Notes: a model not told the origin generated them from the sequence alone. Positions 1 to 30,484 are shown, numbered from the stretch's first letter. The stretch is 32,000 nt of DNA from Candidatus Nanopusillus sp. (GCA_028275885.1 JAPWTW010000004.1:1-32000); one strand, 5' to 3'. Translations and numbers: made by a program.

Positions 1-324
1 ATTTTAAATAAAATACTATCTAAATTTCCATATAGTTGCATATAATATAATTTCAATAAAGTTTTAAAAGTATAATTATTTTCATACTTATTAAATAGAT
101 GAACTTTTTTATATAAGGTTTATAAATATTACTCATAGATTGTATATGATTATATCAACGAATATAAGTAATATATTATGTTGTGTTTATTGTTAACTTT
201 TTGAATTTATTTAGATGTTTTAATTTTATCATTAACATAATTTTAATAACTTTCTTTTAATTATATAGTTTATTTAGAAATTTATTGTAAAAATTTAATA
301 AAGTTCAAAATTTTTATAAATGGT

Positions 325-1527
325 ATGAAATCTATAAGTGAAAATATAATAGAGCTCATTGTTATAGTTATTATACTAATATTTGTAATATTAGTTTTCT
401 TTAATATGTTAAAAGGTCTTAGTTATGCAGGTAGACCAGAGGCAAAGTTTGGATATGCATTATCTGGAAGTATAAGTTTTATGATAAACCCAGTAGCACA
501 GGAAATATCCAATGCTGCAACAATTGCAAATGATATATTATTAGGAGTGGTTGCTGTTACAACTGTTGTTGGTATAGCTTCTGGAATAAAAGCAAATTAT
601 AATCAGAATATAAAGATCTTAAAAAGTTATGGATATACTGAAGAAGTACTGCAAAATATAGGTTTAAAAAATTTGTTATTTAAAGATCTTAGTACTGGAA
701 AAGCCCCAATAAATACTATTGCATCAAATATTGGAAGATCATATAAAAAAGTCTTTTTAAATCCAGCAGGTAAAGGTTTATTGACAGGAACGATTGGTTT
801 TGATGTAGCATCTTACTTATTAAATAATTTAGCATATGCAATTCAATCGCCAATTTTATATTATTTAGTTCCAGAAGGCGTAGTGGCTTTAAATTTAAGT
901 AATATCGATAATTCTGAAATAAAAGTAATGCTCAGGGATTTAAATCAATCATATGCAGATTATATAGAAAAGCAAGGATATTGTAGTAATCCAACAAAAT
1001 CAGAGTGCCAAAATTTATATACAACATATTTGATTGCGAAATATTTATTTTATACATATGGAGAAACATTAGGACAGAGTGTAATTATAGCAGGAAATCA
1101 TAATGAATATGCATTAATATTATTTGATTATGACAGTAAATATAATGTTACACTAAATGATGTTTTATGTATGTTGGGAATGATGGAATACCATAACTAT
1201 ATTCCATTACAAATTATGTATGGAGATAATGTGGTAGCAAATAGTAATAGTAATATTCCTTGTTATGTATTAAGTAATGTAAATAATGAAATAATGTCAT
1301 CAAATCCACAAATTTCAAATGTATATAATAAACTATTAGTAAATTCATATAAAGTAGATCAAAGTGGCGTTCCTCAAAACATAGGATCAACTTCAGATAA
1401 TCCCCCACCAGATGGAGTTATAATTATTCCAGGTAATCTAACCTTACCAAATGGTATAATAATAGAATATACATATGAAGGGGGAAATAGAGTAATTCTA
1501 TTAACATCAATTGTTGGGGCAAGATAG
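325..1527 (+). CDS. Orphan N-terminally anchored membrane/secreted protein, gene 1 of the 9-gene cluster
   Basis: 400-aa ORF. N-terminus MKSISENIIELIVIVIILIFVILVFF. Second small-residue hydrophobic stretch ILLGVVAVTTVVGIASGI. Short Cys loop CSNPTKSEC. No family recognised. Confidence 0.6.
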   Translation: MKSISENIIELIVIVIILIFVILVFFNMLKGLSYAGRPEAKFGYALSGSISFMINPVAQEISNAATIANDILLGVVAVTTVVGIASGIKANYNQNIKILKSYGYTEEVLQNIGLKNLLFKDLSTGKAPINTIASNIGRSYKKVFLNPAGKGLLTGTIGFDVASYLLNNLAYAIQSPILYYLVPEGVVALNLSNIDNSEIKVMLRDLNQSYADYIEKQGYCSNPTKSECQNLYTTYLIAKYLFYTYGETLGQSVIIAGNHNEYALILFDYDSKYNVTLNDVLCMLGMMEYHNYIPLQIMYGDNVVANSNSNIPCYVLSNVNNEIMSSNPQISNVYNKLLVNSYKVDQSGVPQNIGSTSDNPPPDGVIIIPGNLTLPNGIIIEYTYEGGNRVILLTSIVGAR

Positions 1528-1557
1528 TTTATAAATTACAAAGTTTTTAGATTTATA

Positions 1558-1704
1558 ATGGAAACTGGAGAACTTTTAAAGATAATTTTAGCATTAATAT
1601 TCATTATACTAATATTAATATTTGTTTTTATCATATTAGGGCCAAAAATAGGGCTAAATATAGATATATTTGCTAAATATCAATTAATAAGAGGAAATGG
1701 ATAA
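1558..1704 (+). CDS. Micro-ORF (48 aa), single hydrophobic helix; cluster gene 2
   Basis: Hand-translated, below the ORF-track cutoff: METGELLKIILALIFIILILIFVFIILGPKIGLNIDIFAKYQLIRGNG. Its stop overlaps the next start by 8 nt (ATGGATAA). Confidence 0.45.
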   Translation: METGELLKIILALIFIILILIFVFIILGPKIGLNIDIFAKYQLIRGNG

Positions 1705-1882
1705 AAAAACTCAAGTAAATACTTTTTTAATAGCAGTAATATTATTTATAGTTGCCTTAGTACTATTAGTAATATTTATGTATTCTTATTTCAAAGGTGG
1801 AGTAAATTTATTTAATAGTATACCACAAACAAATGGCACAAATGTTGTAAATAGTATAAATAGTAATAACTATGGAGGCTGA
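1697..1882 (+). CDS. Micro-protein (61 aa), single hydrophobic helix; cluster gene 3
   Basis: ORF track. MDKKTQVNTFLIAVILFIVALVLLVIF followed by an N/S/G-rich tail. Overlaps both neighbouring ORFs. Confidence 0.5.
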   Translation: MDKKTQVNTFLIAVILFIVALVLLVIFMYSYFKGGVNLFNSIPQTNGTNVVNSINSNNYGG

Positions 1883-2033
1883 TAATGCAATAAACTTTTT
1901 AATATTTTTAATTATTGCAATGGTAATAATAATTTTAGCAATATTATTTTATTATAATATAGTAAATAACTCTATGCAAGTAAATGTAACAAATGTAGGA
2001 CACAAATTATTAAATCAATCTGGATTGAGATAA
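1872..2033 (+). CDS. Micro-ORF (53 aa), single hydrophobic helix; cluster gene 4
   Basis: Hand-translated, below the cutoff: MEADNAINFLIFLIIAMVIIILAILFYYNIVNNSMQVNVTNVGHKLLNQSGLR. Overlaps the upstream ORF by 11 nt. Its stop lies 1 nt before the next ATG. Confidence 0.45.
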   Translation: MEADNAINFLIFLIIAMVIIILAILFYYNIVNNSMQVNVTNVGHKLLNQSGLR

Positions 2034-2034
2034 T

Positions 2035-2958
2035 ATGAAGAGTAATTTTCTTAGAATAATTTTTGATATAATAGTATTAATTGTACTGGCAGTTTTAATA
2101 CTCTATATTATTATGGTATTTATTGGAGTTGCTATGGGAAATGATTTAAAATATATTGAATATTTAAATTCAATTGCTGATAGTATAAATAACAATTATT
2201 ATGGAAGAGTATTTATAAATAATTATGATTACAATTATGTTTTTGTATTGACAAATAATGATGGATGGTACTTGCAATTATATCATTGTCTACCCCCAAA
2301 TTTTGTTGTAGGTGCATTATCTGTTAAAATAGCATATTGGAATGTTTCTACGATAGATAATGGAGATACTGTCATATTTGCACCAGCATTAGTATATTGC
2401 AAATTAATAAAACAAAGATCACTAAATGTAAATCAAATAAATATAAAAATACAAGGATTAAATGCTGATGCAGGTTTATTGGCATATTCTTCTAATAGTA
2501 AATCTTTAGGTTTATTTCAAATTATTATAAATATAATGGATTATTTTTTTCCAGCAGCAAAATCAATGTTTCTTACTATAGTAAATGATACTATAATAAC
2601 ATGTAATAATAATGGATGTACATTTACATCTCTAAATGTTAGTGGTGGTAATATATATTGTGCTCCAAACCCAAATATAGATTATAAAAGTCAGGATTTA
2701 CCATATAATCCATCAAAATGTGTGGAACTATCAGGATTTCCAAGAAATCCTCAAATAGTTCTTAGTAATTTTGTAGGTGAAATAATAGATGCTGCTACAT
2801 TTGGTGATCTATTTACAAAGATCTTTCAGACAGATTTTCCAATATTATATTTTGCAGGTTCTTTACCACCAACAGCAATATATATAGAGGTAAATAGTAA
2901 TAGTAGTGAAAAAACAGCAAATATTAACATATATATAGGAGAAACTGTTCCTACATAA
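2035..2958 (+). CDS. Orphan N-terminally anchored, Cys-containing secreted protein; cluster gene 5
   Basis: 307 aa. N-terminus MKSNFLRIIFDIIVLIVLAVLILYII. Short Cys loop CNNNGC plus further Cys. Several N-x-S/T sequons. No family recognised. Confidence 0.6.
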   Translation: MKSNFLRIIFDIIVLIVLAVLILYIIMVFIGVAMGNDLKYIEYLNSIADSINNNYYGRVFINNYDYNYVFVLTNNDGWYLQLYHCLPPNFVVGALSVKIAYWNVSTIDNGDTVIFAPALVYCKLIKQRSLNVNQINIKIQGLNADAGLLAYSSNSKSLGLFQIIINIMDYFFPAAKSMFLTIVNDTIITCNNNGCTFTSLNVSGGNIYCAPNPNIDYKSQDLPYNPSKCVELSGFPRNPQIVLSNFVGEIIDAATFGDLFTKIFQTDFPILYFAGSLPPTAIYIEVNSNSSEKTANINIYIGETVPT

Positions 2959-2959
2959 T

Positions 2960-4060
2960 ATGGATCTAGATGAATTATTAGATGCAATAATAGCATCAAT
3001 ATTTTTAATAATTGTATCATTAATAGGAATATATTTTCCATATATTGTTGCAAGAATATTTGGTACACATAATCCACATTTAGTATTAGAAGTTGCTAGT
3101 TTTATTACATATTCTACATCTGAACCTGGAAATATAAATGCAGCATTTTTATTAACTAATGAACCAGTTTTTTTCTATGAATTTAGGATAGCTCCATCAA
3201 TGCCTTCTTACTTTCCACCAAATCCATTGTATGATAATAATAATTTTTTTGTTAGTATTGGAATATGTTATGTATACGATCTATGGCAACAACTTGCATA
3301 TAATGCTATAGATTCTTTTATATCTGCAGTAGCTTCATATATTCCAGGATTGAAGGCCGGTGGTACTACAACTTTATTGACAGCTTTAAACAATGTATTT
3401 AAATCTACACCATCAATTGCTAAACAAACATTAATGAACTTTGTTGGTACATATGCATTTTATACAGCACAATCTGCTTATTTACAATATTCATATGGAA
3501 ATAGTAATATTTGGGGTAATATTCTCAATGCATTACAATCATCAGCAGGACCTGCTTTATGGTCTACTGTAGAATTTTCTATAATGCAAGTTGCAGATAT
3601 GATATTACAACAAGTTATGCCATTTCCATGGGGTTTTGTATCAGGTGTTGCATTTAATTTAGCATTTACCTCAGCAATTACATTATTTGAATATTGGCAA
3701 GCTACTTCTAACCCATATATAGGTTGTTATTATAATCGATTTATAAATCAAGGTAATGGAAATTCAATATTTCCAAGTGGAAAATATACAGTATATCAAC
3801 CATATTTAACATTATCAATATATTATAATCCGAATTTTACATTTTATAATGGATGTGGGGATTATTATTTATGTGATCCAAGCTTTACATATATTTATAA
3901 TCCAAATGATAAAACTCAAAATAATATATTCAAACTAGATTTGGGAAATATAAATGATAAAGGTCAAGAAGTATTTCCAGAGTTTATTATTTTATCAAAG
4001 GTAGGTTCAGAATCTGGAGGCCCATATTTAAATGTATCAATATTATCTTCTAGATCATGA
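2960..4060 (+). CDS. Orphan N-terminally anchored protein with a long A/S/T/G/Q-rich low-charge central region; cluster gene 6
   Basis: 366 aa. N-terminus MDLDELLDAIIASIFLIIVSLIGIYF. Central segment ISAVASYIPGLKAGGTTTLLTALNNVF...GFVSGVAFNLAFTSAITLF. CGDYYLC loop near the C-terminus. Confidence 0.6.
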   Translation: MDLDELLDAIIASIFLIIVSLIGIYFPYIVARIFGTHNPHLVLEVASFITYSTSEPGNINAAFLLTNEPVFFYEFRIAPSMPSYFPPNPLYDNNNFFVSIGICYVYDLWQQLAYNAIDSFISAVASYIPGLKAGGTTTLLTALNNVFKSTPSIAKQTLMNFVGTYAFYTAQSAYLQYSYGNSNIWGNILNALQSSAGPALWSTVEFSIMQVADMILQQVMPFPWGFVSGVAFNLAFTSAITLFEYWQATSNPYIGCYYNRFINQGNGNSIFPSGKYTVYQPYLTLSIYYNPNFTFYNGCGDYYLCDPSFTYIYNPNDKTQNNIFKLDLGNINDKGQEVFPEFIILSKVGSESGGPYLNVSILSSRS

Positions 4061-4908
4061 GGTCACTATCTTTAAAAGATATAATTGAATATATAACTGC
4101 TGCAGTTATTATTATATTTGTATTTTTTGTTATAGCAATATTATATACATTATTTAATATTGAATCATATTCAGAATATACTTATCAACAATTTACAAAT
4201 AGTTTATTAATTGATAGATTAAATTATTGTTTATATGAAAATACCAAAAATCCATTATTATTATTTTATGCTCCAAATCAAAATATTATTAATAAATATA
4301 ATAATATATATCAACAATGCTTTATGAACATATCTGGAACATTTTACTATTTTATTAATCAATCAAACCAATCAAACAAATTTATATATACCTATCTAAA
4401 TTTTTCTTATAATGATTATATATATTTCTTTTTCTATAATATTAACAATATAAATAATTCATATTCATACGATCCATATAATCTTAGTTTTAAATATAAT
4501 ATAAGTGTATCTCCATATAGGGTTGCATACAATATTTATAGTTTAAATTATACATATGATGGAAATTTACAATCTTTAAATCAATTTTTAATCAACTATT
4601 TCTATAATTATAGTTTATATATATATAATGAGACAAAAAATATATATCAAAACTATGAAATCATAAATAATGCTAAAATAATTAGTTATGTAGAATATGG
4701 AGAAAATTTTTATTATGATGAAGTATATATTCAACCAATAGTATCATATTATATTGTTTTACCAGAATATAATAGTGGGGAACCTGTAATAGTATCTTTA
4801 TATGGGGTAGGATATCTTTATATGAATGGTATATATAATACCACATGTGATATATTTGCTGGGGGCCAAATAAATATATCTTCATGTAAAATTACTAAAA
4901 TACAATGA
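4057..4908 (+). CDS. Orphan N-terminally anchored, strongly sequon-rich protein; cluster gene 7
   Basis: 283 aa. ATGA overlap with the upstream gene. N-terminus MRSLSLKDIIEYITAAVIIIFVFFVIAIL. I count 12 N-x-S/T sequons by hand. 4 Cys. Confidence 0.6.
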   Translation: MRSLSLKDIIEYITAAVIIIFVFFVIAILYTLFNIESYSEYTYQQFTNSLLIDRLNYCLYENTKNPLLLFYAPNQNIINKYNNIYQQCFMNISGTFYYFINQSNQSNKFIYTYLNFSYNDYIYFFFYNINNINNSYSYDPYNLSFKYNISVSPYRVAYNIYSLNYTYDGNLQSLNQFLINYFYNYSLYIYNETKNIYQNYEIINNAKIISYVEYGENFYYDEVYIQPIVSYYIVLPEYNSGEPVIVSLYGVGYLYMNGIYNTTCDIFAGGQINISSCKITKIQ

Positions 4909-5384
4909 GGATACAAATAGGTTTCTTTTTATCATTTGTTATTGCAATATTAATAATTATAGCTCTATTATTTATATTTATCTTTAATATATTTTCATAT
5001 GGAAATCCAACACTAAATAATATTGCAAGTTTAAATGCTGTTGGTATTGAATATAAATCTGCAAATGGTTTTTTGAATTCTCTAATTTATTTTAATAATG
5101 TAACAGTACCAGTAATAGATATATATGCAGGTTTTAATAATAATAAGGCATTGAATGATTATATAATAAATGAATTAACAAATAATGTATTATATTATTT
5201 AAATAATTCTGCTACAATTATAACATTTTATTTAGATAATACAATAATTGGAGTATGTCCAAATAAAGAATATATAGATTATAATGTTTATTTAAATGGT
5301 AAATTATATACATTCTATGTTTGTCCACCAACAGTATTATATAATTTTTATGTAAATTATAGTATCTATACTTATATAACTTAA
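4905..5384 (+). CDS. Orphan N-terminally anchored small protein; cluster gene 8
   Basis: 159 aa. ATGA overlap with the upstream gene. N-terminus MRIQIGFFLSFVIAILIIIALLFIFIF followed by about 130 aa that look beta-rich. Confidence 0.55.
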   Translation: MRIQIGFFLSFVIAILIIIALLFIFIFNIFSYGNPTLNNIASLNAVGIEYKSANGFLNSLIYFNNVTVPVIDIYAGFNNNKALNDYIINELTNNVLYYLNNSATIITFYLDNTIIGVCPNKEYIDYNVYLNGKLYTFYVCPPTVLYNFYVNYSIYTYIT

Positions 5385-5416
5385 AGTTAATAATCTTAAA
5401 AACATATTGAATTTAT

Positions 5417-6910
5417 ATGAAAACATCTTTAGCACCAATTGCATTATTCATGGGAGTAATAATTTTAACTGTCTTTGGTATATATTATTTAAATTCTCAG
5501 ATTCAACGTGCAACAGAATCTTTAAAATATTTAAGTGAAGATTATATAGCATATCAAGGATTTTTATATTTATTATTTGTTTATATACCATTTGATATTA
5601 GATATAATTTATTGAATAACCTTTTAACAAATATTTTTTCAGGATCTACATATAATATAAATTATGTATTTGGGAATAATATTCCAGATTATTATTCACA
5701 ATGTGAAATACCCTTTTTATTTAATTTAGAAAAAGTAGAAAATAATCATAATATAATTTATTCATTATGTGTTCCAGTAATTCCTTTAAATAATGTAAGT
5801 AATTACCAAAATATTATAAATATATTAGGTAATATTGGAAATATTGTAAACAAAGATTTAAAAGAAGAAATTGGATATTTAAACACAAATTTAAATTTTA
5901 AATATGCAAATTTTTCATATCAAACTTTTTATTATGATATTTCTGAAAATAGTTTTATATTATCAAATCCGCAATATTCATTCTTTGTATTAAATAAATA
6001 TGAAAGAAGTTTGACTTTTCCACAACTAAATTATAGGATAGAATATTCAATATATCCGTATTTATTGTACTATAATGAATTAATAGGTTATTTATATAAT
6101 AGAACATTTCAATTTATATATTATAATTTAACAAACCAATCAAATTATTTATATTTATATAAAAATTCATATTCTAAAGAAACAATTAGAGATAATTTAT
6201 ACTTAAATTTATCATTTAATAATACATATTACTATGTTTTAGATTTATACACATCTCAACTTTTACCAGTACAATATCCAAATATTACAAATGTGACAAT
6301 TGTAATACCATGTGAATCAGTTGGACAAATTGTTAATAATCAATGTATAATAGATGATAAATATTCTGAATATATGTATGCATGCTTATATTTAAATACA
6401 AGTCAAATTTTATCTATTTTTAATTATCAAGTATTAGATGAGGTAAATATATTTAATGGATATTGGTATAATATAACTAATGTAAGTATTAGTATTGAAA
6501 AAAATGTAAAAGTTAGTAGAAGATTTGTAGAAAATGCTTTAGAAATGTATACATATTATACTGGTGGATATTATCCAGCTTTAATACATTTAAATATTCA
6601 AATAAATTATAGTAATGTCAGTTGTTCTATAAATAATCAAATAATAAAATTTGGACCATATGATAGTTATTTTAACTGTTTATCATCACAAAACTTATTG
6701 AAAAATCTTTTGCCAAATATATGTACAATAAGTGAATTTGGATGTTATAATGATAATGTAAATTATTATTTTAATGCTAAATGTTATGTTGTAGAATCAT
6801 ATATAAATAATCAGTTTATGTACAATTATTATTTATATAAATTTGTAAAAATAAATAATGAAACAATAGACAGTTATTGTGATGATTCATATTGTTATAT
6901 AATAGGATAA
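5417..6910 (+). CDS. Orphan N-terminally anchored, Cys-rich, sequon-rich large protein; cluster gene 9
   Basis: 497 aa. N-terminus MKTSLAPIALFMGVIILTVFGIYYL. About 15 N-x-S/T sequons by hand. Short Cys loops (CESVGQIVNNQC, CTISEFGC, CDDSYC). Confidence 0.6.
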   Translation: MKTSLAPIALFMGVIILTVFGIYYLNSQIQRATESLKYLSEDYIAYQGFLYLLFVYIPFDIRYNLLNNLLTNIFSGSTYNINYVFGNNIPDYYSQCEIPFLFNLEKVENNHNIIYSLCVPVIPLNNVSNYQNIINILGNIGNIVNKDLKEEIGYLNTNLNFKYANFSYQTFYYDISENSFILSNPQYSFFVLNKYERSLTFPQLNYRIEYSIYPYLLYYNELIGYLYNRTFQFIYYNLTNQSNYLYLYKNSYSKETIRDNLYLNLSFNNTYYYVLDLYTSQLLPVQYPNITNVTIVIPCESVGQIVNNQCIIDDKYSEYMYACLYLNTSQILSIFNYQVLDEVNIFNGYWYNITNVSISIEKNVKVSRRFVENALEMYTYYTGGYYPALIHLNIQINYSNVSCSINNQIIKFGPYDSYFNCLSSQNLLKNLLPNICTISEFGCYNDNVNYYFNAKCYVVESYINNQFMYNYYLYKFVKINNETIDSYCDDSYCYIIG

Positions 6911-7488: not shown

Positions 7489-7962
7489 ATGGATAGAGAA
7501 AAAATAATATTAAATATGTTATTTCTAGTATTTTCTATACCAGTAATTTACCTAATATATTATTCATATTCGACATATTTTAGTGAAAATAAGATGGTAA
7601 ATCCTAAAAATATATATGATCTATATATATCAAATTTTACAGTGAGTGGAAATTACTTTTCCTTTAATGTAAATAATCCAAATAATTATTCTGTTGAAAT
7701 ATATTTTTCATATTTAGCATTAAAAAATTCATATCAAACATCATCAATAATAGCTTCTGGAAGTTTTTTACAAAATATATATGTAATACAACCAAATAGC
7801 TATATTATATTACAATATAATTTTGAATTAGATGATCAAACAAGATTAACAATTATTCAATGGGAAAAACTTGGTGGAATTTTATATTTAACATTATATT
7901 ATTCATCTGTAGGAAATAATTCTATTAGTGGAATAATAAACTATCAAATAGAAAAAATCTAG
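7489..7962 (+). CDS. N-terminally anchored protein with a possible LEA_2/WHy-like beta domain
   Basis: 157 aa. N-terminal helix ILNMLFLVFSIPVIYLIYY. FSFNVNNPNNYSVEIYF resembles the NPN-containing strand pattern of LEA_2 domains. This is recalled from memory only. Confidence 0.4.
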   Translation: MDREKIILNMLFLVFSIPVIYLIYYSYSTYFSENKMVNPKNIYDLYISNFTVSGNYFSFNVNNPNNYSVEIYFSYLALKNSYQTSSIIASGSFLQNIYVIQPNSYIILQYNFELDDQTRLTIIQWEKLGGILYLTLYYSSVGNNSISGIINYQIEKI

Positions 7963-14210: not shown

Positions 14211-14294
14211 GCGGCGGTGCCCGAGCGGTCAAAGGGGGTCGGTTTAGGTCCGATTGGATAAGATCCGCCAGGGGTTCAAATCCCCTCCGCCGCA
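14211..14294 (+). tRNA. tRNA-Leu (anticodon UAG), class II with long variable arm
   Basis: Folded by hand. Acceptor GCGGCGG/CCGCCGC, anticodon stem GTCGG/CCGAT, loop TTTAGGT, variable stem GGAT/ATCC, T-arm AGGGG-TTCAAAT-CCCCT, discriminator A. No encoded CCA. Confidence 0.9.
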
Positions 14295-14461: not shown

Positions 14462-14536
14462 TGGACCCGCGGGGATTCGAACCCCGGACCTCTCGGACCG
14501 CAACCGAGAATTCTGTCCATGCTGAACTACGGGTCC
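14462..14536 (-). tRNA. tRNA-Arg (anticodon GCG)
   Basis: The reverse complement folds as GGACCCG-TA-GTTC...GAAT-CTCGG-TTGCGGT-CCGAG-AGGTC-CGGGG-TTCGAAT-CCCCG-CGGGTCC-A. No encoded CCA. Confidence 0.9.
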
Positions 14537-15695: not shown

Positions 15696-16183
15696 ATGAA
15701 TAAATCGAAATTATTTTTCTTATTATTAATATTTAGTCTTTTTTAATATATATTCACAAAATTACTCATCAACATTATTAAATATTTCAGTAAATTCTAT
15801 AAATATAAATCAATTAAATCTATATGGTTTGGGACAAGGATCTTATGGTGATTTTTATATTCTATATCCTTCATATTATTTTTCTTATCCAATAACTTCA
15901 TTAAATCAATATTTAAATATATATTTCAATTCATCAATTCCTTTATCCTTTTATATAATGAACCAACAAAATTATCAAAATTTTCAAAATGGCAGTAATT
16001 TTACATCAATTTATCAAGGATATACAAATATACAAAAAATACATATTATTTTTTATATATAGTTTGACAAATCAGCCTTTAAATATTGTTATACAATTCA
16101 ATAAAGAAATTCAATATAATTATTTAAATATTGGATTATTAGTCGGAGGAATAATTGGGGTAATTGTATTTATTATATACTGA
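15696..16183 (+). pseudogene. Surface-protein gene (signal peptide ... C-terminal TM anchor) split over three frames by two homopolymer frameshifts
   Basis: Frame A 15696-15746 gives MNKSKLFFLLLIFSLF* and ends in a T6 run. Frame B is open 15730-16062. Frame C is open 15962-16183 and ends NIGLLVGGIIGVIVFIIY*. Removing one T at about 15739-15744 and one A at 16034-16039 gives one ORF of about 160 aa. Confidence 0.4.
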
Positions 16184-16257
16184 TGGGACCGCCGGGATTT
16201 GAACCCGGGACCACCGGTACCCCAAACCGACATCCTTCCAGGCTGGACTACGGTCCC
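16184..16257 (-). tRNA. tRNA-Pro (anticodon GGG)
   Basis: The reverse complement folds as GGGACCG-TA-GTCC...GGAT-TCGGT-TTGGGGT-ACCGG-TGGTC-CCGGG-TTCAAAT-CCCGG-CGGTCCC-A. No encoded CCA. Confidence 0.9.
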
Positions 16258-16276
16258 AGATAAAATATATGAAAAA

Positions 16277-17119: not shown

Positions 17120-18280
17120 TCAATTAATATTAATTGTATTAGATAATGTTATATTTGGTGTTATTGGTGTATATACAATTGTTACATTACCATTGATATA
17201 TGCATATCGAGCATTTGGGAGTACATTGCTAATTACTAAATAATAGCCCTCATTAGATAATTGATATGTATCTAGCAAAATTTCTATATTAAATGTTGTT
17301 GATATACCACCATAGTAATATGCAGGGCCTGTAAATGACCATGCTTCTCGTTGATATAGACCTTCAAAGTAATTAAATTGATATGGTGTAAATAAAAATA
17401 ATTTAACAGGGCTTGTTGAGCTAAGATTTATGACTAGTTTCACATATTTGTCATTTGTTGGTAAATTGTACTGTATTGGTAAGTACATGTAATATTGTTG
17501 AGGAAGGTCTTCATTAATTACTGATACTGGTAATGTTTCAGGTCCACTGCACCAGTTACTTAGTTCAATTACCAACCATGTACTATTTTCAATTTCTACT
17601 GAACATCCATAGGATTTGAAGTATTGCGGTATATTTATATTCGGACCAGGTATTTCAGTTACTGGACATGAACCAATAATTACATAAGATGGTCCATATC
17701 TGATATAATATCCATAATATGTATAATTACTATCTATTAAACCTTCCCAATGAATAGGTGCATTTAATTGAAGATCTTGTACATATTCATTTGGTGTATA
17801 ACCAGCTGGATACAGAACTTCTTCACTAATTAATAAGAAGCTTCGATATTGATTTAAATATTTATTAAAGTCTTGGTCAAAACTATAATGACTTATTGCT
17901 GGATTCTGAATCATTGTTTTAAATCTAACATAAGCAAACTCATCTAGCCAAGGGCAGTATTGCAGTGGTTGGGCACCAATTGATTGCCTATATTGATTTA
18001 CAATGCTAAAGAATTGGGAAACCCATGCTGAATTTATTGTAGGTTGTGTATATGTTGTTGTTGACTTTAGGGTTGTTGAAATAGTGTTAATACTTGTTTG
18101 TAAGATTTTTAGTATTTGTTTTATATATGAAGGATTATAGATGATTATAAGTATTATTAATAAAATTATTATTACACGAGCAATAATTTTACTAATTCTA
18201 AACCTTCCAGATTTACTTTTACTTTCTTTATTATTCCAATATTTATATCTTCTGTATTTATAATTATCTCTAGTCTCCAT
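17120..18280 (-). CDS. Membrane-anchored CAP/SCP/PR-1-like domain protein with extra C-terminal beta-rich domain
   Basis: 386 aa. Basic N-terminus plus TM helix IIARVIIILLIILIIIY. VNQYRQSIGAQPLQY..WLDEFAYVRFKTM...ISHY and APIHWEGLIDSNYTYYGYYI fit the CAP-domain pattern. Confidence 0.55.
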   Translation of the reverse strand: METRDNYKYRRYKYWNNKESKSKSGRFRISKIIARVIIILLIILIIIYNPSYIKQILKILQTSINTISTTLKSTTTYTQPTINSAWVSQFFSIVNQYRQSIGAQPLQYCPWLDEFAYVRFKTMIQNPAISHYSFDQDFNKYLNQYRSFLLISEEVLYPAGYTPNEYVQDLQLNAPIHWEGLIDSNYTYYGYYIRYGPSYVIIGSCPVTEIPGPNINIPQYFKSYGCSVEIENSTWLVIELSNWCSGPETLPVSVINEDLPQQYYMYLPIQYNLPTNDKYVKLVINLSSTSPVKLFLFTPYQFNYFEGLYQREAWSFTGPAYYYGGISTTFNIEILLDTYQLSNEGYYLVISNVLPNARYAYINGNVTIVYTPITPNITLSNTININ

Positions 18281-18482: not shown

Positions 18483-18557
18483 TGGTGCCACCGCCGGGAT
18501 TTGAACCCGGGACCTCTACCTTACCAGGGTAGCGCTCTACCGCTGAGCTACGGTGGC
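18483..18557 (-). tRNA. tRNA-Thr (anticodon GGU) with genomically encoded 3' CCA
   Basis: The reverse complement folds as GCCACCG-TA-GCTC-AGCGGTA-GAGC-G-CTACC-CTGGTAA-GGTAG-AGGTC-CCGGG-TTCAAAT-CCCGG-CGGTGGC-A-CCA. Its 5' nucleotide overlaps the stop codon of the upstream CDS. Confidence 0.9.
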
Positions 18558-19474
18558 TATTTTCCTATCTTCTTTGATATAATATTTATATATTGTGGAT
18601 TTATACTATAAATATATTCATTGTTATTTATTTCTCTTAATAATATACCCTGTTTATACATTTTATTTAAATATTTTGATACAGTATTCTTTGGAAGATT
18701 TAATATTCTAGATATTTCTCTTGAAGACATTTTGTTTTTATATAATACTTCTAAAATCTTTATTTGTGTATTAGACAATTTTATATCATTTTCTATATTT
18801 TTTATTTCTTCTAATTCTTTATTTATGTTATCTATTCCCTCTTCCAATAAATTATTTAATTCAATAAATATCTGTCTAACATTATTATTATTCCTTCTTA
18901 TTATATTTCTTAATATTTTTTCATCTATTTTTACTCTTCCCTTTAATTTTTTATTTATCAATTTTAATATTTCATCTTCTGGAGGGAATTTCATTTCAAT
19001 CTTTCTATATAATCTATTTAAGAAAGATAAGGTAGCATTCATTATTTGTGGAGATGGTTGAATTAACATTATTGAATGAGCAATCCTATTATCATATAAA
19101 TATTTTAGTTTTTTAGATACATCTTCTGAAAAATTATAATATTCATCTAATATTAATACTATAGGTAATTTATTTTCAAATTTAAAGAATAAGAACTTAA
19201 TATATTTATTTTTTTCAATTATTTCATCTATATCTTTATCTTTTTCATATTCTCCATTTATATATATTACATTATAATCATCTGATAGTTCTTTTTTGAT
19301 TCTAAATGCTAAAGAAGTTTTTCCAGACCCAATTGGTCCATATAATAGAAATATTTCACCATTTATTATAGAATCTTTTACCTTCTTTATTATATCGTCT
19401 ACTCCAACTAAATCTTCACTTGGTCTTATATCTAAAGGATTTTTAGAGAACCCGTATTTTTTCCACCACATCAT
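18557..19474 (-). CDS. AAA+ P-loop ATPase with C-terminal winged-helix DNA-binding domain (archaeal ATPase / distant Orc1-Cdc6-like)
   Basis: 305 aa. Walker A GPIGSGKTS, Walker B LILDEYYNF, C-terminal HTH SSREISRILNLPKNTVSKYLNKMYKQGILLR. Confidence 0.6.
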   Translation of the reverse strand: MMWWKKYGFSKNPLDIRPSEDLVGVDDIIKKVKDSIINGEIFLLYGPIGSGKTSLAFRIKKELSDDYNVIYINGEYEKDKDIDEIIEKNKYIKFLFFKFENKLPIVLILDEYYNFSEDVSKKLKYLYDNRIAHSIMLIQPSPQIMNATLSFLNRLYRKIEMKFPPEDEILKLINKKLKGRVKIDEKILRNIIRRNNNNVRQIFIELNNLLEEGIDNINKELEEIKNIENDIKLSNTQIKILEVLYKNKMSSREISRILNLPKNTVSKYLNKMYKQGILLREINNNEYIYSINPQYINIISKKIGK

Positions 19475-21119
19475 ATTTTATATTATTTAATAATTCTATA
19501 TAAGTTGATATTGACCATAATTGATGTAGGGCTCCTGCAGGTTTTAATTCGTATGCACTGGATCTCTCTGGTAATGTTCCTATCATTTTTATTAATCTTT
19601 CGTTAGATTTCATAATACTATTTATTATATCCCAATATTTTTCCTTATTTAAATTGTATAAATCTATAGCAGCAATATTGTTTATAAAAATCCATGAATC
19701 TCCATTATGCATTGATTTTCCTTCATTTTTGAAATAATTATCTTCATTACTATATGGAATAAATTCTTTATCAAATATTGATAAACTGCTAATTCCTCCC
19801 CATTTTAGATATAAATGTGTTAATGAATAATCAAATATATTTTCCCATTCATAATTTGAAAAGATCTTTGGGTAAAAGTAATAAGATAAAAATACATTAC
19901 ATCTTATCTTTTTATTTTTTATATCATCATATAATGAATAATCTGATAAATAATTCTTTCTAATTGAATTCTTTATTTTTTCTAATTTTTCTTTATATTC
20001 ATCATTCTTTGTATAATTATATAAATTGTCATATGCATTTGCCATTAAAAATTGTATTTCTATCGGATAAATTCTATTTAATGTATCCATCCATGTTTCA
20101 TTTGGATATGCTTTAAATAAAAATAATTTTTCATCTAAATAATTTTCTTCAAATAATTTTAGCTTTTCAATTATATTATTTACTAATTTATCAAATAATT
20201 CTTTTTCAAATAAATCTTTAAATTGAAATAGTCTAAAAATATATAATCCAATTCCATCAGAATTTCCAACATTTTCATTTTTTATATTTTTTAATCTTCC
20301 ATCTAATAAAAAATAATTTGAATATTCAATTAATTTATTTTTTACAATATCTTTATTAATATAATATAATCCATTTAATGAAATTAATAGATCTCTGCTC
20401 CATTCTTGAAAATACCATGGAAAACCTGCAGAAATATTGTTATCATAAATAAAAGATAGTAACCTATTTTCAATTAAATTCTTTCCACTTAAATTTTCTT
20501 TATCCCTTTTATATATTATTTCTAATTCTTTAGCATAAAAAGAAAATGGCAAATATAAATATCTTTCAAATGGAGGTGATTTTCTATATAAATCATAATT
20601 ATAATTTACCTTTACCCATTTATTTAATTCTTCATAAACCTCAAATCCTTTTATTATTACTTCATAGCTTAAATCTCCTTTATTAAATTTTATTTTTACA
20701 TAATCATTACTTTTTTCATTATTATATATTCTTCCCCATTCATCTATATCATATAAATATCTTATATCGAAATAAACATTCAATGTAGAATATTTATTTG
20801 TTTTATATATTAATTTATTATCTATTAATTTATATTCTTCCCATCCATCTTTATATATTATCTTTAAATCATTATAATCTTTTAATATTACTTTTTCAAT
20901 TTCATTATAGTTTATATCTCTATTTTCTATTTTTTCTATTATTTTGATAAAATTGTTGTTATAATATTGTAATAAACCAAAATATCTACTGTTATATAGT
21001 AAAGGTAAAAACAAAAAAGAACCTTTATTATTTATAACAGCATAATCAAAGTTTTCTAATTCAATTACTTTTTTCATACAAATATTTTTGTTAAAAGATT
21101 TATAATTATTTTTATTCAT
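19443..21119 (-). CDS. Glycogen debranching enzyme, amylo-alpha-1,6-glucosidase (GDE C-terminal domain) family
   Basis: 558 aa. GFPWYFQEWSRDLLISLNGL and MHNGDSWIFINN resemble the (alpha/alpha)6 GDE_C motifs. An alternative start exists at Met15. Confidence 0.75.
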   Translation of the reverse strand: MNKNNYKSFNKNICMKKVIELENFDYAVINNKGSFLFLPLLYNSRYFGLLQYYNNNFIKIIEKIENRDINYNEIEKVILKDYNDLKIIYKDGWEEYKLIDNKLIYKTNKYSTLNVYFDIRYLYDIDEWGRIYNNEKSNDYVKIKFNKGDLSYEVIIKGFEVYEELNKWVKVNYNYDLYRKSPPFERYLYLPFSFYAKELEIIYKRDKENLSGKNLIENRLLSFIYDNNISAGFPWYFQEWSRDLLISLNGLYYINKDIVKNKLIEYSNYFLLDGRLKNIKNENVGNSDGIGLYIFRLFQFKDLFEKELFDKLVNNIIEKLKLFEENYLDEKLFLFKAYPNETWMDTLNRIYPIEIQFLMANAYDNLYNYTKNDEYKEKLEKIKNSIRKNYLSDYSLYDDIKNKKIRCNVFLSYYFYPKIFSNYEWENIFDYSLTHLYLKWGGISSLSIFDKEFIPYSNEDNYFKNEGKSMHNGDSWIFINNIAAIDLYNLNKEKYWDIINSIMKSNERLIKMIGTLPERSSAYELKPAGALHQLWSISTYIELLNNIKYDVVEKIRVL

Positions 21120-21128
21120 TTTTTAATT

Positions 21129-22325
21129 ATGAAAATATTATTTTTATCTTGGGGAGTGTTTCCTCAGAAAGGTGGTGGATTAGAAAAAGTAACATATTAT
21201 TATTTGAAATATCTCGATTATTTTAATAATAATGTTTATTTATTTATTTTAAACCTGACTGATGATGTAAAATCTTTTTGGAATAATAAATTAAAGAATT
21301 CAAAAATCTTTGGATTAAATATGAAAGTATATCAATCATATATAGATTATTTTAAATATGAATCTTTTACTTTATATAAAAGGAAAATTATAGACTATAA
21401 AAAGGCTGTAATTGAATATAAAGATAGAATATTGGATTTATTGAAAAAAATGAAATTAGATTTTGATATTATATATGCATATGATTGGTTAACTGCTTTA
21501 GCAGGTATAGAAATAAAGAAAATATATAAAAAACCATTGGTTGTTCATTTTCATTCTTTAGTATATGATAGAGTTGGAGGGAATCCGGATGCTTTAAAAT
21601 ATTTATATGATTATGATTATGGAATAGAATTAGAAGCATGTAAATATGCAGATAAAATTATAGTAGTAAGTAAGAGAGAAAAAGATATATTAACAAAATA
21701 TTATAATTGTGATGAAAAGAAAATTGATGTAATATACAATGCTCCTGATGATGATTTTAATATAAAAGAGAAAATAAATAGTAAAATAAAAGAAAAATAT
21801 AAGATAGTATTATATCTTGGGAGAATGACAATGCATAAGGGTCCAGATTATTTATTAAGGGCAGCTAAAAAAGTTTTGGAAAAAAGAAAGGATGTATTGT
21901 TTATATTTGCAGGAACTGGGGAAATGCTAGAATATTTAATAAAAATGGCTGCAGATTTAAATATATCAAAAAATGTAATATTTACCGGATGGGTTGATGA
22001 TGATTTAGCAGAATATTTATATTCAATAGCAGATATATTTGTTTTGCCATCTGTATCAGAACCATTTGGTTTAACACCATTTGAAGCTTTAAAATATAAA
22101 GACTTTATAATAATATCAAAACAAACAGGAGTATATGAAGTATTAAAAAATGCATTAGCAGTTGATTTTTGGGATGTAAATAAGATGGCCGATTATATAT
22201 TGGCACTATTATCTTATCCAAAATTAGGAGAATATGAGATAAAATTATGTTTGGATGATATAAAAAATTTATCTTGGAGAAATTCTGTAGAAAAACTAAT
22301 TTCTATTTTCAATAGCCTGGTTTAA
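21129..22325 (+). CDS. GT-B glycosyltransferase, GT4/GT5 archaeal glycogen-synthase-like
   Basis: 398 aa. N-terminal MKILFLSWGVFPQKGGGLEKV and C-terminal PSVSEPFGLTPFEALKY (E-x7-E type motif). Confidence 0.75.
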   Translation: MKILFLSWGVFPQKGGGLEKVTYYYLKYLDYFNNNVYLFILNLTDDVKSFWNNKLKNSKIFGLNMKVYQSYIDYFKYESFTLYKRKIIDYKKAVIEYKDRILDLLKKMKLDFDIIYAYDWLTALAGIEIKKIYKKPLVVHFHSLVYDRVGGNPDALKYLYDYDYGIELEACKYADKIIVVSKREKDILTKYYNCDEKKIDVIYNAPDDDFNIKEKINSKIKEKYKIVLYLGRMTMHKGPDYLLRAAKKVLEKRKDVLFIFAGTGEMLEYLIKMAADLNISKNVIFTGWVDDDLAEYLYSIADIFVLPSVSEPFGLTPFEALKYKDFIIISKQTGVYEVLKNALAVDFWDVNKMADYILALLSYPKLGEYEIKLCLDDIKNLSWRNSVEKLISIFNSLV

Positions 22326-23471
22326 TTCTATATCTTTTAAAATATTCATATATGATATAAAAGAATCATATGGGGTTGTAAAAGCCTCTTCCCTAAAATA
22401 TTTATGAACATCCCCATCACTATTATATTTTAAGCTCATATAATAGAAATTATCTGAAGTTGATAGATATCTTAATATATTTAATATTTTTTCATCATTT
22501 TTATACTTTTTATATAATTCTCTCAAATAATCTAAAGCTTCTCTTTGTATACTATCTCCAATCCATGCAGATAGATCTCTCTCAATATCAGCCCATGATA
22601 TTAGTTCTGGAATATTTAATTCATCTTTATAATCAAATTCTTCTGCAGCTTCAGTTATATTATATGTTTCAAAATATTCTTCTTTTCCAATATACTCAAA
22701 TAATTTATTCCAAAATTCAAATATTCCAGATTCTTTCCATATATGTTCTCCAATTGTTTCAAAATCCATAAATATATTTATTATATCTCCAGGGGTGCTC
22801 TTTAACCATAAATAATATTTATCTGCAGTTAATGGATATTCTGACCAATTCTTATTTGTAAATCTAAATCCTATATCATCAGATAATCTATAATTTCTTA
22901 ATAATAATCTTAAATTATTTATTTTTAATTTATATACGTAATTTGGACTTCTATTTCCCAAAATTTTTTCAGTCCCTTCAGTTAATGCTACTTTATATCC
23001 TAAAGAATATACAATTTCTCCAATTTCGTTGTTAAATACAAGTTCAAAGTTTCTAAAGCTTTTAGATTTATAATTAAATATTTCTTTTATTTTCTTTCTA
23101 TGCAATTTTATTTGATTAATAAATTCTTCTTTATCAATTAAATATGCTAATGAATGATAATATGTTTCTGATACAATTTCTACATTTCCAGTATCTACTA
23201 ATTTTTTCCATAATTCTAAAATTTCTGGATGATATAATTCTAATTGTTCAATCAATGTTCCAGAAATTGAAAATGATACTTTTATATCATACTTTGTAAT
23301 ATTGTCATATATCATTTCTAATGCTGGTTTATAACATTTATATACAACCCTATCTAGTATCTTTTTATTTAGATCGTCGTTGAAATAATTTTTATATCCA
23401 ATATCAAAAAATGAATAATACCTTATTCTTCTTGGTTGATGTGCATGGAAATAAAATACAATACCTGTCAT
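22296..23471 (-). CDS. Glycoside hydrolase family 57 alpha-glucan-active enzyme
   Basis: 391 aa. N-terminal FYFHAHQPRR (GH57 region I HQP) and FMDFETIGEH (GH57 D-x-E-x-x-GE region). Confidence 0.75.
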   Translation of the reverse strand: MTGIVFYFHAHQPRRIRYYSFFDIGYKNYFNDDLNKKILDRVVYKCYKPALEMIYDNITKYDIKVSFSISGTLIEQLELYHPEILELWKKLVDTGNVEIVSETYYHSLAYLIDKEEFINQIKLHRKKIKEIFNYKSKSFRNFELVFNNEIGEIVYSLGYKVALTEGTEKILGNRSPNYVYKLKINNLRLLLRNYRLSDDIGFRFTNKNWSEYPLTADKYYLWLKSTPGDIINIFMDFETIGEHIWKESGIFEFWNKLFEYIGKEEYFETYNITEAAEEFDYKDELNIPELISWADIERDLSAWIGDSIQREALDYLRELYKKYKNDEKILNILRYLSTSDNFYYMSLKYNSDGDVHKYFREEAFTTPYDSFISYMNILKDIELNQAIENRN

Positions 23472-23508
23472 AAATATTTTTTAAAGATATAATAATATAA
23501 AATTTAAT

Positions 23509-23823
23509 ATGATTGAAGTTGATGATGAAAAACAAGCATTTATCACTATTGATGGACAAAAATTATATGGTCTTCAAGATTTATTAATTTGGTTATACAA
23601 TGCAGATCAAGATAAATTTAATTATCATAAAAATCATTTTCCCGAATGGATAAAGAATTCATTGAAGGAGGAAAGTTTATATGAAAAGATAAAGGAAGCG
23701 AAAGATAAGGATGAGTATATAAAAATAATAGGAAATTTCTTAAAAACTCATGAAATATATGTAAAGAAAAAATTTTCAAAGGAAGAGGCTGAAATAAGAT
23801 TTTCAAAATTATTAGGATTATGA
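23509..23823 (+). CDS. Small K/E-rich protein of unknown function, first gene of a 3-gene coupled unit
   Basis: 104-aa ORF. Its stop overlaps the ParA/MinD-like start (ATGA). The C-terminal half is highly charged (KEAKDKDEYIKI...KKKFSKEEAEIRF). Confidence 0.5.
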   Translation: MIEVDDEKQAFITIDGQKLYGLQDLLIWLYNADQDKFNYHKNHFPEWIKNSLKEESLYEKIKEAKDKDEYIKIIGNFLKTHEIYVKKKFSKEEAEIRFSKLLGL

Positions 23824-24482
23824 TAGTATCTTTTCTATCATTAAAAGGAGGAGTTGGAAAAACTACATTAGCAAATAATCTTGCAGCATATTTAAAGAAG
23901 GAATATAATTATAAAGTATTGATAATAGATACAAATGGAATTTATTCTTCAAATTTAATATTCTTAAATAATGAAAAATTCTTTGGAAATAAAATATATG
24001 AAGGAATAAAGATATTACCATACTTTCATTTAAAAATTATAGATAATTTAGATTTTAATGTTAATGATTTAAATTATTTGAAAAGATATTATGATGTAAT
24101 TATTTTTGATGTACTTCCAAATATAAATTATATATTAAATATTGAAAAAATATCAGATATAAATTTTCTAGTAATAAATCCAGATTTCTATTCTTTATAT
24201 GTAAATAAAAAATTATATGATCTTTTAGATAAAAATAAAGTTAAAATAATATTAAACAAATATGATAAAAGTATTGAAATAGATTTTATAGAAGATATAT
24301 TTAAGAAAGAAATATATACGGTTATTCCAATAATTAAAGATTTTATTAATTATCAGCTCCAATATCAACCAATTGCATTTTATAATGAAAAATCAAAAGC
24401 ATTGAAATATATAGATGAGCTAGCATATTGTATAACTGGTAATAAAAAGAGGAGAAGTATATTTGATATTATATTTAGATGA
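23820..24482 (+). CDS. ParA/MinD-family deviant Walker-A ATPase
   Basis: 220 aa. SLKGGVGKTTLANNLAAYL (KGGxGKT deviant Walker A), VLIIDTNG, YDVIIFDVLP (Walker B). The C-terminal basic/hydrophobic tail is NKKRRSIFDIIFR. Confidence 0.8.
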   Translation: MIVSFLSLKGGVGKTTLANNLAAYLKKEYNYKVLIIDTNGIYSSNLIFLNNEKFFGNKIYEGIKILPYFHLKIIDNLDFNVNDLNYLKRYYDVIIFDVLPNINYILNIEKISDINFLVINPDFYSLYVNKKLYDLLDKNKVKIILNKYDKSIEIDFIEDIFKKEIYTVIPIIKDFINYQLQYQPIAFYNEKSKALKYIDELAYCITGNKKRRSIFDIIFR

Positions 24483-30446: not shown

Positions 30447-30484
30447 ATTTCATCTTTTTATTTTTAACTTTATAAAATATAATT

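Follow-up and report, generated by a model that had tools for sequence, protein, structure and literature searches.

Nine adjacent genes, here called p1 to p9, occupy positions 325-6910 on the plus strand of a 32,000-nucleotide (nt) stretch of DNA from Candidatus Nanopusillus sp. (GCA_028275885.1 JAPWTW010000004.1:1-32000), which was analysed over its whole length and is referred to below as the window. They form a conserved unit of orphan genes whose products share a motif at the junction between a short polar leader and a hydrophobic helix, and have an ectodomain-like composition beyond it. We tentatively favour the explanation that the products are type-IV-pilin-like subunits forming a stand-alone set, which machinery encoded elsewhere would assemble into a fibre or pseudopilus contacting the host. 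An earlier account of the same sequence, the preliminary description, had taken it to come from a reduced, possibly host-dependent archaeon. Indeed, the window belongs to the Nanopusillaceae, obligate ectosymbionts of Crenarchaeota, and its DnaG primase shows 92-96% identity to Candidatus Nanopusillus and Nanobsidianus genomes.

The preliminary description had listed nine same-strand open reading frames (ORFs) packed with overlaps or 1-nt gaps, and all its coordinates and junctions were borne out (Table 1): four junctions overlap, by 8, 11, 4 and 4 nt, two have a 1-nt gap, and spacers of 30 nt (p1/p2) and 32 nt (p8/p9) separate the genes at the other two. These ORFs are not due to chance, since the order of all nine is kept in more than ten genomes and their ratios of non-synonymous to synonymous substitution rates (dN/dS) lie below 1. 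The comparison of cluster order among relatives, put forward earlier as a check, shows that the order is kept from Nanopusillus to YN1, Nanobdella and a more distant lineage, together with a flank made up of TYW3 on the opposite strand, a 157-residue membrane protein and DnaG. The whole cluster is present in seven Nanopusillus-type genomes at 64-93% identity. It is also found in strain YN1 (complete genome) and the metagenome-assembled genome (MAG) KM4331-08, where the large proteins are 27-45% identical and DnaG 85%, in Nanobdella aerobiophila, with products of 378, 44, 61, 52, 273, 382, 339, 155 and 492 amino acids (aa), and in the more distant lineage, where p6 is at 22% identity. The mini-protein p2 (81-90% identity among Nanopusillus loci) was found in YN1, KM4331-08 (by tblastn), Nanobdella and L026, the most divergent lineage, and p9 is the best conserved of the large proteins, with 41% identity to YN1. 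Pairwise dN/dS is 0.21-0.59 for the nine genes (0.24 for p2, 0.21 for p3) versus 0.07 for DnaG and TYW3, with an equal dS of about 0.3. The nine ORFs are genuine genes, inherited vertically and evolving fast while under purifying selection, and an elevated dN/dS of this kind fits exposed, host-facing proteins. The cluster is best explained as an operon that is passed on vertically and is confined to the Nanopusillus/Nanobdella lineage.

An integrated virus or mobile-element remnant encoding virion or envelope proteins would also appear as a tight module of orphan, fast-evolving, glycosylated membrane proteins, and the mini-proteins do give sub-threshold matches, driven by the membrane helix, to viral envelope families (ODV-E18, poxvirus entry proteins). 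This hypothesis was rejected; it is largely refuted and we regard it as exceedingly improbable. The chromosomal position and the flanks are identical in every lineage, divergence follows the host phylogeny, dS is the same as for DnaG and TYW3, and the borders of the cluster carry no integrase, att site or tRNA. No viral homologue was found among PHROGs, in IMG/VR (p6 and p9), or in GenBank phage and archaeal-virus records (p1 and p9, tblastn).

The preliminary description recognised no known family in any of the nine proteins, and none has emerged since. Pfam, NCBIfam and PHROGs gave no match at threshold, profile searches against all PDB sequences (with p1, p5, p6, p7, p8, p9, the pooled N-termini and the p7 N-terminus) returned nothing significant, and the published N. 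acidilobi gene table, in which the cluster is Nps_00220-00255 (Nst1_038-047), assigns no arCOG to any member (PMC4935971). An archaeal-type 'flagellin' chain (8fk7), the second-best match of the pooled N-terminal profile at E=0.52, was not counted as evidence, and a match of p2 to DUF7554 (E=0.002, below the cut-off) was rejected because it spans the membrane helix only. All relatives found belong to a narrow set of host-dependent nanoarchaea from hot springs: a word-indexed protein search linked p6 to 55 proteins and p8 to 33, all from Nanopusillaceae-type sources, and an exhaustive HMMER search of 1.84 billion representatives with the p6 profile retrieved 10 proteins. The named p6 matches comprise YN1_3890, MJ1_0047 (N. 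aerobiophila) and Nanopusillaceae MAG proteins, none of them named as Nanoarchaeum equitans. A metagenome scan with the p6 alignment gave 70 loci, all from close relatives (59-85% identity). The families are also distinct from one another: all-against-all hhalign of ten families (p1-p9 and p10, the 157-residue flanking protein) showed no similarity outside the N-terminal 20-45 residues. Weak tblastn cross-matches among p7, p8, p9 and p10, obtained with composition correction off, were therefore rejected as reflecting Asn/Tyr/Ile bias. As for the system being undescribed, this holds as far as the literature shows, and the locus is not described in the consulted passages of a 2026 preprint about type IV filament systems of archaea. 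The genes themselves, however, were already deposited as hypothetical proteins (the N. acidilobi genes named above, MJ1_0047, YN1_3890), so that the novelty is in recognising the nine-gene unit and its junction motif.

In each product, a hydrophobic helix of 20-25 residues comes after 1-9 polar residues at the N-terminus, and the Kyte-Doolittle hydrophobic segment begins within residues 4-15 in every one. The single-helix plan proposed earlier thus stands for the N-termini of all nine, but p1 has a second hydrophobic segment (Table 1). Orthologues from 12 genomes and about 450 metagenomic copies were aligned over the junction between leader and helix. Of the 63 distinct N-terminal variants of p1, p3, p4, p5, p7 and p9, 59 have G, A, S or T immediately after the last Lys or Arg of the leader, and this residue switches inside families: MKS, MKG, MRG or MRT in p5; MRS, MRA or MKG in p7; KKT, KKA, KRS or HKG in p3; MKT, RKRG or KLRS in p9. 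Taken protein by protein, p1, p3, p5, p7 and p9 have K/R followed by G/A/S/T, and p6 has D/E followed by A/G, its acidic leader ending in D-A, E-G, D-S or D-T. Divergent orthologues carry sites of prepilin type (an arrow marks the proposed cleavage position): KKG↓QES in p1 of YN1, KKG↓VSD and HKG↓QIS in p1 and p3 of Nanobdella, RA↓LS in p7 and DA↓I in p6. Among archaeal prepilin sites, proven or predicted, are KG↓QI of EpdE, RA↓LS of S. acidocaldarius and DA↓VS of H. volcanii (PMC4371748, Table 1); the Nanobdella p3 start, MAYHKG↓QISTFL, has the same site type as M. maripaludis EpdE. The small-residue position ahead of the hydrophobic segment looks like a class III (prepilin) cleavage site. 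This type of site is favoured because small residues are held before, not after, the hydrophobic segment, for which the positive-inside rule alone is insufficient.

Beyond the helix, the nine proteins look extracytoplasmic, as several features of composition suggest. Charged residues (K+R+E+D) make up 9-13% of them versus 25-44% of the cytoplasmic proteins of the window. Their richness in Asn and Tyr is partly explained by a G+C content of about 23%, in the window as in the genome; the charge depletion is a real contrast. The larger proteins all have an even number of cysteines (p1 4, p5 6, p6 4, p7 4, p8 2, p9 12), invariant or nearly so among orthologues, and the six short-range Cys-pair motifs quoted in the preliminary description were all found. 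Its hand counts of N-x-S/T sequons were exact as well, at 12 in the 283-aa protein and 15 in the 497-aa protein. Against expectation from composition, these counts compare with 4.7 for p7 (p<0.0005) and 7.5 for p9 (p=0.004), and the short tail of p4, for which the excess is likewise significant, has 2 sequons versus 0.3 expected, in every genome. The p7 excess is seen in all lineages (9-14 observed, 3.6-5.2 expected), and the excess of p4, p7 and p9 persists across lineages; for p1, p5 and p6 it is not significant. 'Dense' sequons are thus a property of p4, p7, p9 and, weakly, p8, but not of p1, p5 and p6. The idea of exported, disulfide-stapled, glycosylated proteins is consistent with the conserved even cysteines and the low charge, with sequon enrichment confined to some of the nine. 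N. acidilobi cells do carry surface glycosylation (PMC4935971). Such ectodomains would also be compatible with ordinary Sec signal peptides, cut by signal peptidase I past the hydrophobic region to release soluble glycoproteins that are secreted or associated with the S-layer. A signal peptide is flagged in the N. acidilobi table for Nps_00220 (p1) and Nps_00250 (p8) (PMC4935971). We consider this reading very unlikely: seven of the nine proteins are not flagged in that table, and the hydrophobic stretches are far longer than typical Sec h-regions. A Sec-cleaved signal is also unlikely because the helix sequences are strongly conserved within families (IIFDIIVLIV, IIASIFLIIV), which is unexpected for a signal that is discarded.

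A number of points weigh against pilin-like subunits. In the window's own lineage, Ser or Thr predominates at -1, unlike what is usual at PibD/FlaK-type sites. Leaders have only 2-5 residues. Those of p2 and p6 are acidic. The positive-inside rule, for its part, also predicts a basic residue ahead of a membrane helix. When the nine window proteins, 20 orthologues and 105 N-terminal segments were submitted to hmmscan, there was no match at threshold to the known pilin N-terminal families (Pilin_N PF07790, Class_IIIsignal, archaeal flagellin), the best score, and the sole match to Pilin_N, being that of Nanobdella p5 (E=0.019, 16.3 bits, for a cut-off of 25.2). The pilin and minor-pilin idea of the preliminary description gains new evidence in the conserved [K/R or D/E]-[G/A/S/T] junction right before the helix, but has no pilin Pfam match. 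A check of predicted structures for a pilin fold, made on p6 and p8, yielded none. AlphaFold2 reached a mean predicted local distance difference test score (pLDDT) of 49.8 for p6 (37-sequence alignment) and 45.8 for p8 (32 sequences), both below 50; the available homologues are too alike, being 64-89% identical to the query, with one further p8 homologue at 47%. The confident part of the p8 model is the N-terminal helix (residues 2-33) only, a long helix that in itself speaks for pilin-like subunits. That of p6 has the N-terminal helix plus a moderately confident helical bundle, not a beta-sandwich. Foldseek searches of the PDB with both models gave nothing at E<=0.001, the matches being meaningless (template modelling score about 0.1). 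The second hydrophobic segment of p1 means that it is not a simple single-helix protein. Moreover, a single 114-codon ORF of L026 (5544-5888) holds both p3 and p4, the p4 part having a start of its own, MKRS↓D, inside it. This ORF is either a fusion or a read-through; a fusion would give p4 an inverted topology, awkward for a pilin model.

Nor is there any machinery close by. As the preliminary description stated, no assembly ATPase, platform protein or prepilin peptidase is encoded in the window, and the surroundings of the cluster in Nanopusillus, YN1, Nanobdella and L026 have none out to about 10 kb. Among the 70 loci of the p6 metagenome scan, no lineage has the cluster beside an ATPase or platform gene. 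The census of archaeal type IV pili by Makarova et al. (2016) includes two nanoarchaea without a recognisable A24 prepilin peptidase, and the N. acidilobi gene table annotates no prepilin peptidase in the nanoarchaeon, though its host has one (PMC4935971). Finally, none of the nine proteins was detected in the N. acidilobi shotgun proteome, which covers only a minority of gene products and, in the part of the table examined, almost no proteins with predicted membrane helices (PMC4935971).

Much of this would be expected if the nine were uncleaved signal anchors, that is, type II membrane proteins making up all or part of a membrane-anchored envelope complex independent of type IV filament machinery, possibly a structural or fusogenic cell-envelope module at the host contact site. 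The positive-inside rule alone would then predict the basic leader residues. There would be no need for a pilin family match, a pilin fold, a linked ATPase, platform protein or peptidase, or a recognised prepilin peptidase in nanoarchaea; the extra hydrophobic region of p1 and the helical bundle of p6 are atypical for pilins; and strict translational coupling suits a complex of fixed stoichiometry. What signal anchors leave unexplained is the presence of G, A, S or T after the leader K/R in nearly all variants, with free switching among the four, and the convergence of divergent orthologues on KG↓Q and RA↓LS. We judge this alternative, the main rival, to be possible but rather unlikely.

As to pilin-like subunits, both the literature and the N. 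acidilobi table place partner machinery of the type IV filament kind at other sites in these genomes. Makarova et al. report secretion ATPases in nanoarchaea, one ATPase clade being without cognate pilins, and Jarett et al. (2018) describe two type IV pilus systems plus an archaellum, with four FlaJ/TadC homologues (PMC6142677). In N. acidilobi, an expressed arCOG01818 ATPase adjoins a TadC-like gene, and no pilin is annotated beside the pair (Nps_02245-02260, PMC4935971). The same genome has a second run of single-helix orphans, Nps_00470-00525, around the TadC-like arCOG01814 gene Nps_00520 (PMC4935971). Jarett et al. also found dense non-synonymous single-nucleotide polymorphisms in 'hypothetical external' proteins with one N-terminal helix (PMC6142677).

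According to the reading that we favour, the nine would be extracytoplasmic, disulfide-bonded and partly N-glycosylated proteins with class III (prepilin-type) signals, in which a leader of 1-8 residues, closed by [K/R or D/E]-[G/A/S/T], directly precedes the hydrophobic helix. They would insert into the membrane via the N-terminal hydrophobic helix, a peptidase would remove the short leader, and a type-IV-filament ATPase/platform pair encoded elsewhere would extract the subunits and stack them via their N-terminal helices. The three mini-proteins (44-61 aa) and the 159-aa protein might build the shaft, and a minor-pilin-like complex for priming, at the tip or for adhesion might consist of the five large subunits (283-497 aa), with p9, the largest subunit, as a candidate adhesin; translational coupling would set the subunit stoichiometry. 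The outcome would be a surface fibre or a short pseudopilus for host contact.

A more specific proposal, which we hold to be unlikely, is that the products of the operon are structural components of the apparatus by which nanoarchaea attach to the host, a type-IV-filament-derived device reaching or penetrating the host envelope. Cryo-electron tomography of YN1, Nanobdella and YN4 has revealed a cone, a portal and a 6.6-8.2-nm filament, together termed the 'attachment organelle', plus other appendages, the proteins of which are stated to be unknown. Likewise, papers from 2024-2026 state that it is unknown which proteins underlie attachment, host specificity and the cytoplasmic bridge in cultivated Nanobdellota, and a survey of Nanobdella surface proteins considered only those with detectable signal peptides. 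Of the strains that bear the organelle, DNA was examined from two, YN1 and Nanobdella, and both have the cluster. Candidate structures are the 6.6-8.2-nm intercellular filament and the portal of the cone-shaped organelle (YN1, YN4, N. aerobiophila), or the second surface appendage of Nanobdella; the Gly/Ala-rich hydrophobic p1 and the helical-bundle p6 would be membrane-active tip components.

The Nanobdellota in cultivation (Nanopusillus, Nanobdella, YN1, YN4) sustain themselves by tapping a crenarchaeal host physically. The syntenic nine-gene set provides a short, concrete list of candidates for host-contact structures: the MJ1_0042-0050-type genes (numbering extrapolated from MJ1_0047, which is p6), the neighbourhood of YN1_3890, and Nps_00220-00255. 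If the sites with Ser or Thr at -1 are truly cleaved, this would suggest that these genomes harbour a class III signal peptidase activity that has escaped recognition.

Table 1. Features of the nine-gene locus, in window positions; the arrow marks the proposed end of the leader.
Feature	Position	Strand	Length (aa)	Remarks
Putative promoter of the locus	288..321	+		A/T-rich, 5' of p1; two TATA-like boxes (taaaaatttaataaag, tttttataaat)
p1	325..1527	+	400	Leader MKS↓ISENIIE, hydrophobic helix; Gly/Ala-rich additional hydrophobic segment, residues 70-88
Conserved TTTATAAATT box	1528..1537	+		21-30 nt 5' of the p2 ATG; possible internal promoter
p2	1558..1704	+	48	Mini-protein; METG↓ELLK, hydrophobic helix, short conserved tail
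p3	1697..1882	+	61	Mini-protein; MDKKT↓QVNTFL and hydrophobic helix; 8-nt overlap with p2
p4	1872..2033	+	53	Mini-protein; MEA↓DNAINFLIF; 11-nt overlap with p3
p5	2035..2958	+	307	MKS↓NFLRIIFD (MKG↓D, MRG↓D in relatives); six conserved Cys including CNNNGC
p6	2960..4060	+	366	Acidic leader MDLDELLDA↓IIAS (E-G↓IIAS in YN1); four Cys including CGDYYLC
p7	4057..4908	+	283	MRS↓LSLKDIIEY (RA↓LS, KG↓LS in relatives); ATGA overlap with p6
p8	4905..5384	+	159	Pilin-sized; M[KR]IQIG↓FFLSF; invariant C-terminal Cys pair C118/C140; ATGA overlap with p7
p9	5417..6910	+	497	MKT↓SLAP (RKRG↓SLAP in YN1, KLRS↓SLAP in KM4331-08); 12 Cys, 15 sequons

Conserved TATA-like boxes lie about 21-35 nt 5' of the start codons of p2, p1 and, in Nanopusillus only, p9 (the p9 box at about 5385-5395). 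The 288..321 sequence is kept 5' of p1 in all Nanopusillus-type loci; the TTTATAAATT box does not vary among 8 Nanopusillus-type loci, has similar counterparts in L026 and L028, and could possibly drive a leaderless transcript covering p2-p8. The boxes suggest leaderless transcripts and a possible substructure of p1, p2-p8 and p9, instead of a single nine-gene mRNA.

Further conserved features mark individual products. The first protein, p1, whose counterpart in N. acidilobi and among deposited genes is Nps_00220/Nst1_038, has 4 invariant Cys and the invariant motif YTYGETLGQSV; its orthologues begin with MRKKG↓QES (YN1), MKKG↓ISG, MKKG↓VSD (Nanobdella) or MRNSG↓AS. In one relative (L010) p4 starts with MKS↓DNAINF, and the p4 tail holds two conserved sequons. 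An invariant HNPxLxLE...TYSTSEPG block is found in p6, along with the predicted central helical bundle. p7 is 16% Tyr, with its 4 Cys invariant, and has Asp at +5 in 11 of 12 genomic orthologues, the exception being the most divergent, from L026; this Asp is a further point in favour of pilin-like subunits. The 3' end of p9 overlaps the convergent TYW3 gene.

Extra genes are found 5' of p1 in Nanobdella (60 and 790 aa; L028 3935-6486) and in the L026 lineage (61, 500 and 62 aa; 2111-3985), and share the plan of a short leader and a hydrophobic helix (MRS↓VEIS, MRG↓TSIP). The module therefore seems expandable. On the other side of the cluster, between TYW3 and DnaG, p10 (window 7489-7962, plus strand; MDREKIIL...) is a tenth N-terminally anchored orphan, which adjoins the cluster in every lineage including Nanobdella and L026. 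It is under tighter constraint than the nine (dN/dS 0.15) and has no junction of K/R plus a small residue; it may serve the cluster as an accessory factor or have nothing to do with it.

Elsewhere in the window, a 386-aa protein encoded at 17120-18280 on the minus strand, with a long basic N-terminus and one membrane helix, is a candidate surface protein; its syntenic N. acidilobi counterpart, Nps_00345, is annotated as an SCP/PR1-domain protein. A glycogen metabolism block at 19443-26098 encodes a debranching enzyme, two glycosyltransferases/glycogen synthases, a GH57 enzyme and a ParA/MinD-like ATPase. Terrestrial Nanopusillus typically have such a block, and N. equitans lacks it (PMC4935971). 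Four tRNA genes (14211-14294, 14462-14536, 16182-16258 and 18483-18557; Leu, Arg-GCG, Pro-GGG and Thr-GGT) are present, none of which borders the nine-gene cluster. A Cys/Ser-rich 102-aa ORF at 30439-30747 on the minus strand, where G+C reaches 32%, looks like the antisense of a plus-strand gene that runs off the end of the window (31001-32000); by synteny, that gene is probably the ATP-dependent protease Nps_00420.

The locus partly resembles genes for archaeal class III signal-peptide proteins and bacterial minor-pilin operons, yet it is not assigned to any described pilin family because it fails the sequence-family and locus-composition tests. Like the archaeal type IV pilins (M. maripaludis Epd, S. 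acidocaldarius Aap/Ups, H. volcanii PilA1-6), the nine proteins start with a short leader, closed by K/R (or D/E) and a small residue, and continue directly with a hydrophobic helix of about 20 residues; the KG↓QI, RA↓LS and DA↓VS site types occur in some orthologues. N-glycosylation, which the sequons suggest here, and multi-pilin gene sets are shared as well, and archaeal pilin genes can also lie apart from the ATPase and platform genes, as do H. volcanii pilA1-6 and the stand-alone pilins of M. maripaludis. The nine differ in having no detectable similarity to known pilin families and no arCOG, in the frequency of Ser/Thr at -1, in leaders of down to two residues, and in coming from a genome without a recognisable prepilin peptidase; five of them (283-497 aa) are far larger and three (44-61 aa) far smaller than ordinary pilins. 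The M. maripaludis Epd cluster is a single transcription unit in which KG↓Q pilins with Glu at +5 are encoded together with EppA, a dedicated peptidase, as well as an ATPase and split platform genes (PMC4371748); only the KG↓Q site type is shared, in some orthologues, with the nine-gene cluster, which is without a peptidase, ATPase or platform gene.

The bacterial operons for minor pilins and pseudopilins (GspG-K of type II secretion, FimU-PilVWXE, ComGC-GG) similarly combine several pilin-like genes in one tightly coupled operon, for what is presumed to be a stoichiometric priming or tip complex, and the large alpha-helical insertion of GspK is reminiscent of the helical bundle predicted in p6. 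They belong, however, to another domain of life and show no homology; they have four or five genes instead of nine, their sites are of the G↓F-x-x-x-E type, and they are usually near, or co-regulated with, known machinery. The mini-proteins p2-p4, which would have about 40-55 residues after the proposed processing, consist of a helix and a short tail, as do Flp pilins of the Flp/Tad systems and the truncated Geobacter-type pilins, but there is no G↓xxxxEY motif, no adjacent TadV, TadA or TadBC, and no sequence similarity. As for the large subunits, the substrate-binding proteins of the Sulfolobus bindosome have recognisable solute-binding domains, unlike the nine proteins, in which no domain is recognisable, but they offer a precedent for large (>300 aa) surface proteins with class III signals that use a type-IV-pilus-like assembly.

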